Positions 27,001 to 36,000 of a stretch of DNA of 64,000 nt are shown here, one piece after another. Source of the stretch: an uncultured bacterium (lineage in GTDB: Bacteria; Babelota; Babeliae; Babelales; Babelaceae); contig CAWFXL010000001.1 of assembly GCA_963819815.1 (NCBI GenBank), positions 768,001 through 832,000 on the forward strand, written 5' to 3'. Made by a program: the position numbers. The first letter of the stretch is position 1, and each line of letters begins with the position of its first letter.

Positions 27001-30000
27001 GAGATTTGGTCAAGTGAGCAGTGGTTTCTAGAAGCTCTCACAATTCTTGGCGACGACGGGGATAGAAGTCTTTATGCGCAAGCTCTCATTGGACTTGGAA
27101 ACGCTCAATACACCAACAAAAAACGTGACCAATCCTCATGGTTTAGAGAAGCACTCCAGATACTTGGTAAGAATGGGGTCACTACCCTTCGGGCCCAGGC
27201 TCTGATTGGCCTGGGGAATACTAGATATGTTGATAAGGAACATCCAACACAAGCCATATGGTACCAAGAAGCACTTATGGTACTTGAAGCAGAATCGCAC
27301 GGTGCCCTATATGCTCAAGCTCTTATCGGTCTTGGTAACTATTATTGTGGACAAAGAGTTAACGCCAAAGGAATAACCTATTTTCAGCAAGCTTTAACGT
27401 GTGCCCCTGCAGAAATGCATCCTTCCATTCAGCAAAAGATAGACCATTCGCAGGAAATAATAAGTACAGGCTCAGTTTGCACAAGCATTGATGCAGACCT
27501 AGAGACCCTTCTCATTCTCAAGGAAGATAGGGATGTGACCGTCCGAGCACAAGCTCTTATTAGACTTGCTAATTGGGGATATACTGACAGGGCTCATCCT
27601 AAAGAAGTTGATTGGTACCTCGATGCACTAGAGGTGCTCGGCACAAGCGGCAGTAACGATCTTCGAGCACGAGCGCTTATTGGGCTTGGCAATAAAAAAT
27701 ATAGCACTAAGACACGTGATAAGAATTACTGGTTTGTGCAAGCGCTAAATCTCCTCGAAAATGATGGTGATCCAGTACTCCAGGCAAAGGCTCTTATTGG
27801 CCTTGGCAATGGCAAATATTTCCATAGTGGAGGACGAGCTCACTGGTATCTGAAAGCACTCTCCCTACTCGGTGAAAATGCCCCCTCTGAAATCTCTGCT
27901 CAAGCACTTATTGGACTTGGCAATGCCCGATATACCGACAATACACATACGAGCAATACTCAATGGTATGTTGAAGCACTCTCCATACTTGGCAAGGATC
28001 GCGAAAAGAACTTACAAGCCAGAGCTCTTATCGGTCTTGGTAACGCTCGGCATGTTGATGAAACACATGCGAATCATGCCCTGTGGTTCCTCGATGCATT
28101 GAGAGTTCTTGGCGAAGATGGCGATAGAGATGTTCAAGCAAAAGCTTTCATTGGCCTTGGCAATGCTCAATATGTCGAGAAGGACAAAGAGCGAAGTACA
28201 TGGTATCTAAAGGCACTCGATGTGTTGGGTAATGACGGCAATCAAGATCTTCAGGCTCAAGCTCTTATCGGTCTTGGCAACTCTCGGTATGTGGACGAAA
28301 CCCATCCAGATCATGCTCAGTGGTACCATGATGCCCTCACGAAGCTCGGTGATGCAGGTGATAAAACTGTACGTGCTAACGCGCTGGTCGGACTTGGAAA
28401 TCACCACTGCTGGACAAGTGATAACGCACATGGCGTATCCTTTTATCAGCAGGCTTTAGTCTATGCATCAGAGGAAATGAAAGACAACATTCAACAAAAG
28501 ATAGACCAGGCTCAGACCTATGTTGAGCGTGAAAAATCCCGTATTATACGTCTTGATAAGCTCAAGAAACTCGTTAATAATGGCGACACAGCTCTACGAG
28601 CTCAAGCGCTGATTGAACTTGGTAAGCTAATCCATACGGACGAAACCCACCAAACTCCAGCTGCTTGGTTCCTCGATGCACTGAACGCCCTGGGTGATAC
28701 TGGCAATAGAGGACTTCGAGCTCAAGCGTGTATAGAACTTGGCAATACCAACTTTACTGATTCTCGACATACCCAAGTTCAGTGGTATCTCCATGCTCTC
28801 ACCATGCTCGATAGAGATCACGATCACGACCTCTATGCTGAAGCCCTTATAGGTCTTGGGGCTACAGACTACGTCGATGATACTCACAAAACTCAGGCTG
28901 ACTGGTTCTTAGATGCGCTCAGAATCCTAGGTAACGACGGTACTATAAGTCTCCGAGTAAAAGCTTACCTTGCTCTTGGCAATGGTCAGTATAGAGGTAT
29001 ACATAATGAATATGCTAATAGCTCTCATTGGTATCTAGAAGCACTCAGAATACTTGGCGATAAAGGTGATAACGTATTACGAGCTACCGCATGCATGGGT
29101 CTTGGTCGGGTGAGGTATTTAGATGCAACTCATACCCACAGCGGTCAATGGTACCTAGCTGCGCTTGCCATTCTTACTAACGGTGATGATACAAACCTAG
29201 AAGCTCAAGCTCTTCTTAACCTTGGTGACCTCAGATACCGGTGTAACCACCACCCTCCGACCTATTGGTACGAAAAAGCACTTACCGTTCTCGACAGAGG
29301 TGGCAGTAGAACTATACGAGCCCAAGTCCTTATAGGCCTCGGAGACTACTACTGTACTTGCGTGCCAAACGATATTCCGTTAGGAATAAAGAAATATCAG
29401 GAGGCTTTAGCGCATGCTCCAGAAGACCTGCAGGTCCTTATTAGAGAAAAAATAAACGCAAGGCAACCGTCTAGTCGACAAAAGAATGGGGGGGTTTTAG
29501 CTCAGGCTCCAGAGCACCTGCAATTCCTTACGAGAACAAAAAGGGAAACTCAGCAAGCAACTATTCGACAAGTAAGCCTTTTGCAGCGTGTCCAGCAGAT
29601 AAAAGACAAAATCGGCCAACCTGTCAGCTCTAAATAAGTTGATGTAGGACGACCAATCACTTCACCTGCGTTTCTTTTTCTTTCCCACGTTTGAGGGGAA
29701 AGCTCTCACCTTGCACAAAATGTTTTGTTCCTTGAGGTGCATAAAAATAGGTTAACGTACTCGATGCTAAGTCTTTACCCATAGTAATTACTGCATAAGC
29801 AGAAGTGCTATACCCATATCTCAGCGTATATTCAAGAGATGGGCTTGAAATCAGATGCCAAGATGAATCTGCATGCTGCAGACCCTTCATAGTTGCCCAA
29901 TCAATCTTTTGATCATCACTATCGATTATTCCCGCAAGAGTTCCTTCAGAATAATAGCAAAGATCATTCAAGTGACATACGGACTGTATCGGTCCATTAT

Positions 30001-33000: not shown

Positions 33001-36000
33001 CTATCTCGAATTCCTGGTATCCCCACATTGATAAAAAAGGCCATACAAACGGCAAACAGAAATAAGAAGAAGAGTGAGTCACTCTCCATAAAATACCCAA
33101 CTTGAGGAGCAAGCCGATCAATCACAAATCGATAGGCCAAAATACCGGTTATAGCTCCTGCCGTTAAGGAAGCAATGGAAGTTTTATAATTTTCCATATC
33201 AAGAGCGAAAGTGAACATCGCCATAAAAAAGAGCAGAAGCAAAGGGAAAATAATCAAAATCGCCTGACGCACCCCCGAATGTACAAAATCTAAAGCAAAG
33301 ATAACTCGTGGGTGAGCTACATCATATTCCCGATGCGATTTGTCCACGCGAGCAACTGAATACCCTGGATACACGCGGGTCCCATAGATTTTCCATCCTG
33401 CATAGGAAAGCTCTGGTGAAAGCACCAGCTCATCATAGGTTGAATCAAATATCACCTCCCCTGGAGAGACATTATTATTATCCATGGTAATACATATCGT
33501 ATGGCTATCAAAAGGAAATGCGGCAAATGTTGGGTTAGCTTTAAAGCTTACTCGAATATCATAGCGCGCGAGTAGCTTCCCTTGCACGATCCTGGTAGAC
33601 GGTTGCGATATTGAGAGAATCTTCCCCTTTTCAAAAGAAAATTTTCCTAAGGTATCGAGCGAAACGATACTCGGATCAAAATAGAACCAGAGGATTCCTG
33701 AAAACTCAAAGCGGTTATCGACGATATTAAACTCTGAAAAGTCCCTGATATACAGACCAACTTTCACCTCTGCAGGTTGCCCCATTTGTTCAATAGTCTT
33801 GGGCAAAATGGGAAGCAGCTCAGGCATCGGGTCAAGGGTATCTGAGGAACTTGAAATAAATTCCTGACTTGCACGATACATAAAAAAGCAGATCAGTACC
33901 GCCGAGAAAAGAATCGTATATACTGAAAAGTATGCCATCGATTCTGATGTGAATACTGGCAGATTTTTTTGCTCCATCTGTTCGATCCTATCACTTCATA
34001 TACTCTAAAAAAAATAGAGTGCTTCTAGCAAGATACGGTACACTGCTGTAGGAACAGCATGAACTACCTGCGCTCTATTGTTCAGTCTACCATACGCAGA
34101 CCAAGTAATATCAAGTTCTGCTCCAAATTGGAATAGATTTGTTTTATATCTGATACGTGGCGCAAACCTTCCCAGATAGGCAAGGGTAGGATCTAGAGCA
34201 AATACCACCGGCTGCTTCGTCGTTTTATCAATATAGAGGCGATGCGATGATCCGAGTGCCTTTGTATACCCAAGAAAACCTCCAACGCTCACCGTTTCAT
34301 TATGAAACCAATACGCAGTATCTATCCATGCGCTCACTGCTTGGGTATTTGCAAAGCTTTGCTGACCGGTAACAGGGTTTATAGATCTGACAGCAAAGCC
34401 ACTTAAAAGAAGTAGACTTGCACCATTCTGGTCATAAATAAACTTGGTCCGCACCTGGAATTTTTTGCCATTATAGGCCGCATAGAGCTCGCAACAAGCA
34501 CTATCAATTTTCTCATGAACAGCAAACCCCTTCTCACTCTCTATATGAGGAGCGATCCGTTTATAATTACCGCCCGCCCCTATGACCACATCCGTATAAG
34601 GAAACAAGCGTACTTGAGCATGAATCTCAGGTATCAACCCATTTCTCGTAATGTCTGTCGTCCCAATAGGTCCTAGAACTGGATAATCAGGACCTACAAT
34701 GAAGGCCAGAATAAATTCCTTGTCAGCACCTCGTGCTGTAAGACGTATTTGGGGGTCTCGGTCGAGTGCCTCAATAGGTGCACCATTGGCAAATGAGATC
34801 GTTTCAGGAAAACAATCGGGGACAAACATAGGATGCCAGTACTGTCCTGCAAGGAAACTAAGGCCAGGTCTATTAATCTCTGCATAAGCATGACGCAACC
34901 GAAAGGCTCCCGTTGAGGGATCGGTTATCCCAAGAAAATCACCTTCAATAAGCCCTTTGAGCGTCCCTTCACGCCAGTTCCAAACCCCTTGCAAACCCAA
35001 CCTACTCTGTATAGCAGTAATACCGAAGTGGCCATGAGCATTAATATCTATTTTCATAGGGTCAAGCAGTACCGGCGCTGGCCAAAGAAGGACAAACCCA
35101 TCACGAGGGGCTTCCACCTGACGAGTATCAAAAAAAAGGTCTGCTGCGGCATAGCCGTAGGGAGTTACCTCAATACCACAAAAATCAATGCTTGAACTTG
35201 AGGCACTAAAGAGCAACAAAATAAAAAGAGTTACACAATGTTTTTGAAACATACCACTACTTCGGAAAAATTCGATTCTTTCGACGTAGCATACCATGAA
35301 GAACCCCTCAGGTAAATGTAGATCTCTGCATATGAATATGCTCACTATACTCGACAACTCAACTGAGACTAGGCTTGTACTGCATTGTAATAATGATCAA
35401 TCCAAGCTTGAGGATTATGCATACGCGTATTACCTCTTTTGAATGCCCTCAAACCAGCATTTAAAAGATTATAGGGGTCTGCATTGCGTCGTGTATCTTT
35501 AGTATCTATAGGAAAAAGGCGACATCCTTGAAGAATACAATTACCAAGAACAATATCATTATGGTCATCACAAGTTTTTCTCAAGCGCAACAACTCTTTC
35601 CTCAGAACGTCATCTCCTGGATATACACCATAGAGCATACAAAATGTTACTAGATTTATGCCGTGCACCCATCTCAAGGGGTATGGAAGACCCTCCTTAT
35701 AAAACTCCTTATGATTGAATGTACTATGCACTTCATAGCGACGTTTTGAAGCGGGACTCTTCATTTGGGTAAACCGGGCAAGATCAAGACCCGTCTTCGG
35801 TATTGATGAAAGATATAATGAGGGGCCGGTACTCAGGGCCTTCGCCACACAAGAAATTCTTGTATTTCTCTGAAGAATCTTTTCAAAAGCTTCCGACTCA
35901 GCACACATAAATACATAATCTCCGAGCGAAGTAAGCGTAGCTATAATTCTCTGCGCGGGCAGAGTGAAGTACTGTGAAAGATCATGCACGATGACCACAT

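Follow-up and report, generated by a model that had tools for sequence, protein, structure and literature searches.

A divergent pentameric ligand-gated ion channel family of Babelota and a pseudo-phosphatase/flytrap protein as its probable separate sensor

The window analysed here, a 64,000-nucleotide stretch of the genome (88% complete) of an uncultured member of the Babelaceae, raises the question of what kind of membrane protein g0727 is, and whether the exported two-domain protein encoded directly behind it works together with it. The four genes concerned were found on the minus strand where the survey's finding had placed them, in an operon that runs from a porin through the channel and its partner to a stand-alone pseudo-phosphatase, with intergenic gaps of 27, 1 and 0 nt; the partner starts 1 nt past the channel stop, and the stand-alone gene directly past the partner stop. 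The features are as follows.

34005..35357, minus strand: probable DcaP-like outer-membrane porin (PF19577, E 1.6e-4, below the cut-off; 6EUS, E 2.9e-5)
32928..33977, minus strand: divergent Pro-loop (pLGIC) channel subunit g0727, 349 aa (profile, predicted model, Foldseek)
33864..33944, minus strand: TM0, the extra N-terminal membrane helix of the channel, aa 12-38 (predicted model and relatives)
aa ~69-233 of the channel: extracellular beta-sandwich (FPFD Pro-loop at 154-157, W195, G205, P223)
30632..32926, minus strand: exported partner, 764 aa (signal peptide aa ~1-19, pseudo-phosphatase aa ~20-370, Venus flytrap aa ~408-758)
31817..32869, minus strand: PPP-type pseudo-phosphatase domain of the partner (motif alignment)
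30653..31705, minus strand: type I periplasmic binding domain of the partner (PF13458, E 1e-40)
29657..30631, minus strand: stand-alone pseudo-phosphatase, 324 aa, more decayed (N-terminal hydrophobic anchor or signal)
C1:565168-566781: g0492, an intact secreted Babelota PPP, the reference for motif comparison

The signal peptide of the porin suggests Met36, at 35252, as its start, and scans for promoters and terminators gave signal at chance level. A paralogous channel with 36% identity, g0920 (C1:1034802-1035845), likewise has, as had been reported, a partner (820 aa), a stand-alone domain (386 aa) and a porin of its own.

The window channel has no real match in Pfam (only GREB1_C, E 0.1), and its match to NCBIfam LGIC_1 (E 4e-4) falls far under the family cut-off. 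A profile of 60 channel sequences, in turn, finds GLIC (E 2.5e-13) and sTeLIC (E 2.3e-11), and the predicted model (pLDDT 93.9), which shows TM0, the beta-sandwich and M1-M4, retrieves sTeLIC (6.6e-17), GLIC (1.4e-16) and GABA-A RDL (1.5e-16) in Foldseek, with TM scores of 0.5-0.6 to the GLIC, ELIC and sTeLIC group. The [F/Y]PxD loop with its invariant Pro, a pLGIC signature (Jaiteh, Taly, Henin 2016, Table 1; PMC4795631), is present among the 285 channel sequences (F 95%, Y 5%; P155 100%; D 61%, E 21%, N 11%), as are the signature beta9 Trp (W195, 96%), M1 14' Pro (P245, 99%) and M2-M3 Pro (P291, 100%), all found in the window channel. The Arg before M1 that is salt-bridged to the Pro-loop Asp occurs in 94% of the superfamily; the corresponding position 233 is R in 52%, K in 20% and H in 13% of this family, with His in both copies of this genome and a second basic residue, R237 (79%), nearby. 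As in other prokaryotic members, there is no conserved Cys at positions 138-175 that could form the Cys-loop disulfide. These data confirm that g0727 is a Pro-loop channel of the GLIC/ELIC type with an extra N-terminal helix, as the survey's finding had proposed. TM0 is unlikely to be a cleaved signal peptide, since some relatives have 3 or 7 additional helices ahead of it, which makes it internal there and therefore uncleaved.

Unlike GLIC, ELIC and sTeLIC, to which they are only 12-16% identical, the Babelota channels have this uncleaved TM0 in place of a signal peptide, a separate partner, a family-specific H159 (97%) and an R15'/D300 pair (246/285), and they lack the loop A motif WxP[DE] (0/285) and a basic 0' residue. 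Compared with three ordinary bacterial pLGICs, ~20 aa are missing from the segment between beta2 and loop A. The aromatics of loop C are nevertheless retained (Y/F206 90%, Y/H/F222 71%), together with W97, and given these residues the channel may itself bind a ligand. The pore of the window channel is lined by S2'-G6'-T9'-A13'-F16', and across the family, with the M2 register taken from the GLIC alignment, 9' is T, S, A or G in 267 of 285 sequences and hydrophobic in 11, in contrast to the Leu/Ile of the reference channels; in the superfamily the 9' gate is Leu in 75% and Phe in 13%, common yet outside the seven signature positions. The pore-facing residues at 6' (G/A 73%) and 13' (A/G 80%) are also unusually small. 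F16' is kept in 92%, and the M2 motif YRFVI shows strong conservation. Newly observed here, the 9' leucine gate is thus replaced in this family, below a lid that F16' would form.

We next consider the partner, whose N-terminal domain was assigned to the PPP phosphatases on the basis of profile matches and alignment, whole-partner fold searches being filled by flytrap matches. Its profile finds BSU1, PP2A and PP5 (E 4e-10 to 1e-6), its relatives match Metallophos, and the motif order GDxHG/GDxxDRG/GNHE/H/RxH/SAP aligns to these enzymes and to the intact Babelota PPPs. In the partner, GPLYG/GNVVDNS/GSQE/SD/TGE replace GDxHG/GDxxDRG/GNHE/HGG/RAH, so that it keeps none of the six metal ligands, though the SAP loop is retained. 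The claim of a dead phosphoesterase held across the family: none of 224 non-redundant partner-family domains has a complete six-ligand site, and active phosphatases among the window proteins can be ruled out. Some deep-branching partners keep five ligands (2 of the 224 domains) or four (39), and may therefore have a residual metal or phosphate site. The statement that the last His segment is missing did not survive; the segment is present and aligns to the R-[AG]-H-Q of intact enzymes, with the His replaced in 221 of the 224 domains and by Glu in 128. Further differences from the PPPs are a conserved N-terminal extension (YA..ExP..DN...L.PDY) and a reduced length of the insert that spans ~100 aa in the intact enzymes of Babelota.

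The second domain is a type I periplasmic binding domain according to PF13458, Foldseek and VIA-align, with 4KV7 (profile E 1e-50, Z 40.8) and 3LOP as its nearest solved structures. Its fold is that of LivJ/LivK (HAAT) proteins, and as in class C GPCRs and the amino-terminal domains of iGluRs, the flytrap would serve as a receptor module. The earlier description as a LivK-type amino-acid-binding protein therefore stands for the fold; the amino-acid label is unsupported by the sequence, because of the residues S79, T102, Y202 and E226, which we take to be the LivJ contacts to the amino-acid head group, only S79 is kept in the window flytrap (S489), and T102, Y202 and E226 are replaced by G, T and S. 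The same holds among 135 flytrap domains (T102 to Gly 84%, Y202 to Thr 65%, E226 to Ser 82%; S/T at S79 87%). A role as an ABC-transporter binding protein was rejected, since the cognate LivHMGF-type permease is absent in this genome (88% complete), where the single PF02653 permease lies in a separate ABC operon with its own binding protein and the only two PF13458 domains are those of the two partners. The model of the partner (pTM 0.89 over both domains) suggests a fixed two-domain unit with the pseudo-phosphatase packed on the flytrap.

The association of channel and partner extends through the phylum. The channel was found in 159 of 261 Babelota genomes and 13 of 21 families, which bears out the reported spread. 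Among 192 genomes at least 90% complete, 94 have channel and partner, 19 the channel only and 79 neither, the 113 channel genomes excluding weak matches in G198, G201, G237 and G249 (E 1e-4 to 1e-8); the weak channel matches in G300, G409, G534 and G565 read as ordinary GLIC-like pLGICs. The reported linkage is equally upheld: a strong PPP-partner match (E<=1e-19) was accompanied by a channel in 94 of 94 genomes, at a threshold chosen after seeing the data and with related genomes that are not independent, and a partner-type gene abuts or is fused to the channel gene in 85 of 102 non-redundant cases. Both partner domains lie within 5 kb of 71 of 83 well-flanked channel genes and neither domain does so in 9; 9 of the 113 channel genomes had no PF13458 match, and the five partner-less channel loci examined contain whole reading frames. 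A mirror-tree comparison of 70 pairs (Spearman 0.41 against a null maximum of 0.14; same nearest neighbour in 48) is read as co-inheritance only and not as evidence of contact.

In some relatives all three parts are joined in one chain. Such triple fusions make up 7 of the 150 best representatives and 13 non-redundant sequences in total, and by the PPP tree the fusion arose at least twice. A hydrophilic linker of ~25-45 aa takes the place of the signal peptide, the mature partner begins after M4, and the predicted topology puts it on the periplasmic side. Newly observed here, fused copies also occur in Legionellales, where the phosphatase fold is retained though every motif is lost; the relative P0311 bears the label 'Myxococcales'. 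Channel-flytrap fusions that lack the phosphatase were found in P0161, P0177 and the second gene in L003. The open frame of 1118 in G223 resolved into two ORFs (342 and 771 aa) and was not counted. Some genomes carry greatly expanded numbers of partner copies, with several paralogues and up to five tandem flytraps per chain. Because some relatives fuse all three parts, the partner is most likely the separate sensor of the channel.

A predicted complex of the partner with one extracellular domain scored 0.46 against 0.00 for the best control, which supports contact weakly. The runs gave 0.08, 0.49 and 0.46, with a contact agreement between runs of at least 75% and a partner pLDDT of at least 74. 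Of 157 solved complexes, 116 reached the pass mark, as did 2 of 215 mismatches; at scores of 0.60 or less, however, only 18 of the 157 did so, together with both mismatches. The complex model used one subunit and yielded no interface, and PDB searches found no similar complex. With the triple fusions, the 94/94 co-occurrence and this weak pass, the functional link is firmer than the survey's finding had it, and a candidate ligand sensor is still the preferred reading.

On balance, we lean towards the possibility, to which we give somewhat better than an even chance, that the channel is gated in trans by a separate flytrap through a pseudo-enzyme adaptor. A homopentameric Pro-loop channel would sit in the inner membrane, with its sensor as a separate periplasmic protein whose pseudo-phosphatase docks, as the adaptor, on the outer face of the extracellular domain. 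A small host-derived solute, admitted by the DcaP-like porin where one is present, would close the flytrap; the best candidate is a carboxylate that lacks an alpha-amino group, judged from the LivJ contacts and from porin function in another organism. Closure would be passed on to loop C and to the Pro-loop/M2-M3 interface and open the pore, whose gate would have moved to F16', and a weakly selective ion flux could then report the host compartment to the parasite. The partner paralogues and tandem flytraps might in that case form a swappable sensor set. The intact partner-less channels, the loop C aromatics and the pre-M1 His in both copies count against gating in trans, as do the four or five metal ligands kept in some deep-branching partners.

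The first two of these points also suit a conventional pLGIC that opens when pH, a cation or an amine acts on its own extracellular domain, with the partner doing no more than concentrate the ligand, modulate the channel or act as a chaperone. Intact channels lack a partner in at least 9 genomes, W97 is conserved with the loop C aromatics, and an operonic binding protein of this kind was proposed by Tasneem et al. (PMC549065, in the part available). We nevertheless regard this reading as rather unlikely, since the loop A motif is absent and the segment from beta2 to loop A shortened as described, and a mere concentrator leaves unexplained the rigidly kept pseudo-phosphatase, the repeated fusion behind M4 and the weak pass of the complex model. 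Some wariness also applies to another arrangement, in which the products are co-regulated without contact, or the channel is a non-conducting pentamer scaffold, and the partner is exported to act on host molecules as a decoy phosphatase or binding protein. The origin of its pseudo-phosphatase from secreted eukaryote-like PPP phosphatases, intact elsewhere in Babelota, the partly eroded pre-M1 Arg and FPxD Asp and the expansion of partner copies would fit; however, at least 13 relatives have the partner physically joined to the channel behind M4 and the gating-interface prolines and YRFVI are strongly conserved, and we consider it quite improbable, the least favoured of the readings weighed here.

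The porin bears on a further possibility, that the porin and the flytrap work with a wide polar pore as a binding-protein-dependent conduit through which small organic anions (carboxylates) are imported, the flytrap delivering the solute or triggering its passage as with ABC and TRAP permeases, in a parasite without most biosynthesis. The small pore residues without a basic 0', the retention of S79 with loss of T102 and E226 and the lack of a cognate ABC permease in this genome would all suit such a route, as would the uptake dependence of TM6 bacteria (PMC4776705, in the part available) and the need for DcaP porins in di-/tricarboxylate use in Acinetobacter (10.1101/2025.07.02.662759, likewise). 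The possible DcaP homology is seen over ~110 aa in the match to 6EUS. Both porins of this genome flank the two channel modules, in line with the porin that the survey's finding had placed nearby, but the porin proved to be an optional neighbour rather than a core part: it lies within 5 kb of the channel in 19 of 83 well-flanked loci, the query used here matched it in just 67 of the 192 genomes, channel-free ones included, and many channel families gave no match (0/22 in f17, 0/9 in f18). Moreover, characterised pLGICs conduct small ions, an open pore of large size would dissipate the proton motive force, and F16' could shut the pore to organics. This conduit appears unlikely, to much the same degree as gating at the channel's own domain or a shade more so. 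The same holds for the boldest reading, a pentameric, Gly/Thr-lined nutrient channel for host-derived organic anions, gated in trans by a detachable flytrap through a pseudo-phosphatase adaptor and passed as a fused gene to other protist-dwelling bacteria; if true, it would join ABC/TRAP uptake logic to a Cys-loop fold in an intracellular parasite.

Parts of the channel/binding-protein idea are already in print. Tasneem, Iyer, Jakobsson and Aravind (PMC549065) described in 2004, in the text available, bacterial pLGICs with fused PBP-I, Cache or MCP-N domains or an operonic PBP-II, and proposed periplasmic binding-protein partners that sense or concentrate ligand. As in those systems and in DeCLIC (PMC12664993, in part), a small-molecule-binding domain is fused to or co-transcribed with the channel; there, however, PBP-I is fused N-terminally and the operon supplies PBP-II or Cache, whereas in Babelota PBP-I stands behind M4 or on a separate chain, with a pseudo-phosphatase between, and 'phosphoesterase' does not occur in the main text of PMC549065. 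The chemotaxis receptor role proposed there does not fit and was rejected, because no chemoreceptor (MCP) or flagellar rod gene was found in this genome (88% complete). The channels had been called unannotated, which is right as regards Pfam; yet V6DIV9 of Babela massiliensis and A0A0D2JDG8 of TM6SC1 already stand as predicted pLGICs in the S1 alignment of Jaiteh et al. (PMC4795631), in which terminal extra domains were trimmed, and V6DIV9, as far as its sequence is given, shares the family motifs FxSxDxxPE, VGLxIxDF, FSFxKG, FPxxxH, GY and HPRV. The main text of that paper leaves Babela and TM6SC1 unnamed and makes no mention of TM0, a partner protein, fused forms or the occurrence across the phylum. 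Our searches, which covered few subscription papers, found no pLGIC with an auxiliary sensor subunit and pseudo-enzyme adaptor, and no literature on ligand-gated channels in Dependentiae/Babeliales or on a pLGIC pseudophosphatase.

Jaiteh et al. (PMC4795631) point out that none of the pLGICs found in unicellular organisms has a known biological role. Babelota, an entire phylum of intracellular parasites, retains one pLGIC family together with a functional clue, the soluble partner, which lends itself to purification and ligand screens; one family member is on record from Babela massiliensis, which has been isolated and grown in amoebae. Having naturally lost the 9' leucine gate, these channels offer a test case for how pLGIC pores close. 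Should the partner gate the channel, the family would provide an example of a pLGIC equipped with an auxiliary sensor subunit and a pseudo-enzyme adaptor.

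The channel gene lies in a head-to-tail series of four genes:

34005-35357, minus strand: DcaP-like porin
32928-33977, minus strand: channel, a 349-aa membrane protein
30632-32926, minus strand: partner, a 764-aa exported protein
29657-30631, minus strand: stand-alone pseudo-phosphatase domain, 324 aa

The spacings of 27, 1 and 0 nt point to a single operon. The paralogous locus that the survey had reported in the same genome is indeed present, with the set repeated in a different order (porin, an unrelated small gene, stand-alone domain, fused partner and channel). Immediately upstream of the porin, a 329-aa gene (35369-36358, minus strand) has tailed-phage methyltransferase-like proteins as its atlas neighbours (score 0.92); it was not seen next to the channel in the other loci inspected. 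A 1403-aa exported protein rich in HEAT/TPR-like repeats (25426-29637, plus strand) ends 19 nt from the last stop of the operon. The window also holds a five-tRNA cluster (4062-4801), a complete rRNA operon with two spacer tRNAs (43387-48646, minus strand) and, just downstream of the latter, a run of six acidic genes of 144-174 aa without a Pfam match (39257-42399, minus strand), within which 40381-41326 and 41466-42399 look like a duplicated pair.

The channel has no real match in Pfam, and the NCBIfam model LGIC_1 reaches only E 4e-4. A profile of 60 homologues found GLIC at E 2.5e-13 and sTeLIC at 2.3e-11, and the structure model (pLDDT 93.9, pTM 0.86) comprises a helix at residues 12-38, about ten strands and four further helices, for which Foldseek ranked sTeLIC, GLIC and GABA-A, each at about 1e-16. 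The protein is thus a Pro-loop (pLGIC) subunit, in agreement with the survey's assignment to the GLIC/ELIC type, and the additional N-terminal membrane helix (TM0) was likewise recovered in the model. We scored the signature positions of Jaiteh et al. (PMC4795631, Table 1) in 285 non-redundant members, drawn from 350. The F/Y-P-x-D motif is well kept (F 95%, P 100%, D 61% or E 21%), as are the beta9 Trp (96%), the M1 Pro (99%) and the M2-M3 Pro (100%). Conservation is lower for the pre-M1 Arg (R 52%, K 20%, H 13%), with His in both channels of this genome. The WxP[DE] motif of loop A was found in none of the 285; compared with three ordinary bacterial pLGICs, the family's loop A segment is some 20 residues shorter.

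Cleavage of TM0 is improbable, since relatives of 446-577 aa carry three or seven more helices in frame ahead of it, which consist of a repeated unit of three helices. As a lead only, the seven-helix form resembles the HisKA_7TM and 7TMR-DISM sensor domains (TM 0.62-0.70). Channels with three or seven extra helices include P0142, P0155, P0158, P0180, P0196, P0201, P0166, P0171 and the genes at L004:6040-7719 and 13385-15058; several of them lack R15' of the M2 YRF motif. One channel of 1517 aa (L120:2383-6936) bears a basic, amphipathic N-terminal extension of about 1170 aa that belongs to no Pfam family.

The M2 register was taken from the GLIC alignment, with the prime numbering of GLIC anchored on P23'. 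Among the 285 members, the pore-facing positions are S/T/G/A at 2', G (46%) or A (27%) at 6', T (64%), S (19%) or A (9%) at 9', A (59%) or G (21%) at 13' and F (92%) at 16', a phenylalanine that ELIC also uses. The residue at 9' is small in 267 of the 285 and hydrophobic in 11; in the superfamily, according to Jaiteh et al. (PMC4795631), it is Leu in 75% and Phe in 13%, and 0' is basic in 79%, whereas in the present family 0' is I, L or V. In 246/285 members R15' occurs together with D300, a residue at the beginning of M3, and the two may form a buried salt bridge. The lumen appears to be wide and polar, shut by an aromatic ring at 16'.

In the partner, a short signal peptide is followed by a phosphatase-like and a type I binding domain. 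A profile built from 68 sequences found BSU1 (3.6e-10), PP2A (1.4e-8) and also PP5, which identifies the first domain, by homology, as being of the eukaryote-like PPP type. Metal ligands were counted in 224 non-redundant partner-family domains (230 retained of 262, less six intact enzymes; many without genomic context): none has all six, two have five (P0290 is one of them), 39 have four, and the partner in the window has none. The domain is catalytically dead, as had been proposed; the segment with the last His motif, described as missing in all, is in fact present and aligns with R-[AG]-H-Q, with the His retained in 3/224 and Glu in its place in 128/224. Scaffold residues are nearly fixed (H124 in 205 of the 224, S125 in 218, R128 in 210, E191 in 217, W196 in 210, D326 in 218), which fits a structural role. 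Intact secreted PPP enzymes occur in this genome (g0492, C1:565168-566781) and in all five channel-free genomes tested, four of which show all motifs, motif I being missed by the pattern in the fifth (G060). In a FastTree analysis of a subset (six intact enzymes, all 13 fusions, the four domains of this genome, and a random 15 stand-alone and 45 fused domains), the partner domains group together in a single clade that excludes the intact enzymes (local support 0.94). Apparently secreted, intact phosphatases of this type (L128, the locus of g0492, and L134-L140) are common in Babelota, channel-free genomes included; they are possibly host-directed and are the likely source of the pseudo-enzyme.

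The binding domain, or flytrap (about aa 405-764 of the window's partner), is nearest to 4KV7 and 3LOP. The type I fold of the survey's LivK-type domain stands; amino-acid binding is not supported. In 135 such domains compared with E. coli LivJ, S79 is retained (S/T 87%), and T102 is replaced by G (84%), Y202 by T (65%) and E226 by S (82%). Since T102 and E226, which in LivJ hold the alpha-amino group of the ligand, are replaced, a standard amino acid seems unlikely; a carboxylate would be a guess. The two-domain model (pTM 0.89) suggests a fixed arrangement of phosphatase and flytrap. Some partners of 1876-2381 aa, arrayed with several paralogues, join one pseudo-phosphatase to four or five flytraps:

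L131:8481-15626 and 1422-8375 (genome G234): tandem-flytrap partners
L004:7740-13370: tandem-flytrap partner

The module is widespread in the phylum, as the survey had it, with the channel in 159/261 genomes and 13/21 families. Among 192 genomes at least 90% complete, a profile search found the channel in 117, in 113 of these at E 6e-53 or better; a partner match at E 1e-19 or below, a threshold chosen after the data were seen and applied to related and hence non-independent genomes, occurred in 94, all with the channel, leaving 19 with the channel only and 79 with neither. Removal of redundancy left 102 of the 142 channel genes in loci L003-L126 (20 of them hand-picked); 85 of the 102 adjoin or are fused with a partner-type gene, and in 76 the next gene downstream has a phosphatase domain. 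For the 83 with 3 kb on each side, both domains lie within 5 kb in 71, the porin in 19, and neither domain in nine. Both DcaP-like porins of this genome flank the two modules, but the porin is not a constant part, being found in only 67/192 genomes, channel-free ones included. In Acinetobacter, the use of di- and tricarboxylates requires DcaP porins (10.1101/2025.07.02.662759). Arrangements differ (channel then partner; flytrap, channel and anchored phosphatase; partners with up to five flytraps). In several close relatives (L023, L024, L027, L044), including a 99% identical locus, partner or channel genes are in pieces, through assembly errors or decay.

The strongest evidence that the parts belong together is their fusion. 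Chains of 971-1113 aa that unite channel, pseudo-phosphatase and flytrap make up seven of the 150 best representatives (13 non-redundant in total, most fusions being single-sequence clusters from assemblies); P0076 and P0203 are examples. In three further genes the channel is joined only to a flytrap. Where the signal peptide would be, the fusions have a hydrophilic linker; the sequence of the mature partner sets in soon after M4, and this also fixes the topology. P0076 separates from the remaining fusions on the tree, indicating at least two fusion events. Beyond Babelota, a Parachlamydiales bin has a triple fusion on one of its contigs (L110); the fusion occurs in one of 250 scored genomes of that class, and mis-binning is therefore possible. 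Within the order to which a Legionellaceae bin belongs, 3/198 scored genomes have fused forms whose phosphatase domain lacks every motif, one split within the channel part and one stopping early in the flytrap. Single-gene transfer among protist-dwelling bacteria is plausible. Ordinary GLIC-like pLGICs unrelated to the module also occur in chlamydial and Legionellales-order genomes (L142, L143, L152, L153).

The module is real and well supported by fold, topology, dead enzyme, linkage and fusion, and from these we infer how it might work. We lean, if only slightly, towards a mechanism in which the partner would dock on the pentamer through its pseudo-phosphatase, the flytrap would shut on a host solute, and the pore would then open at F16'. 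Docking was modelled with one extracellular domain (aa 40-240) and the partner (aa 20-762); support was weak (0.46 against 0.00 for the best control; runs 0.08, 0.49 and 0.46, with at least 75% contact agreement and partner pLDDT of at least 74). In benchmarks this mark was attained by 116/157 solved complexes and 2/215 mismatches, with only 18/157, and both mismatches, at or below 0.60. Given the prior from the fusions we count the model as a small plus. The absence of contact or of conduction we regard as quite improbable.

The channel could also gate itself, with the partner as helper, which we think unlikely. Loop C residues are kept (G205 99%, Y/F206 90%, Y/H/F222 71%, P223 96%), so the channel itself may hold a ligand site. 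Nine of the 113 channel genomes have no PF13458 match, and the partner-less channels have whole reading frames and an equally small 9'. Three tandem paralogues in L155 (G235:C24:803-3975), where no partner was found, carry YNVV instead of the M2 sequence YRFV; in L157 and L159 a gene for an OPT oligopeptide transporter or a dicarboxylate symporter is found within a few kb of partner-less channels, two cases that may be chance. That the module serves as a gated solute conduit seems no more than a slim likelihood to us.

The channel is of a known kind, two members (Babela massiliensis V6DIV9 and TM6SC1 A0A0D2JDG8) being listed, trimmed and without comment, in the alignment of Jaiteh et al. (PMC4795631). 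Binding-protein companions of bacterial pLGICs, as N-terminal PBP-I fusions or as PBP-II proteins of the same operon, were put forward by Tasneem et al. (PMC549065). DeCLIC is described with an N-terminal accessory domain (PMC12664993), and in Yeoh et al. on TM6 genomes the word 'channel' appears once, for gspD (PMC4776705). Our literature searches, which did not extend to subscription papers and bioRxiv supplements, found no description of the module; the family is set apart from the pLGICs already described by TM0, by its partner of pseudo-phosphatase and flytrap, by the fusions at M4 and by the altered gate. Chemotaxis is not the output in this genome (88% complete), where no MCP and no flagellar rod gene were found. 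With the partner docked and the flytrap closing on a host solute, as we favour, our guess is that the module would adjust the membrane potential or the ion balance when the bacterium enters or exhausts its host.
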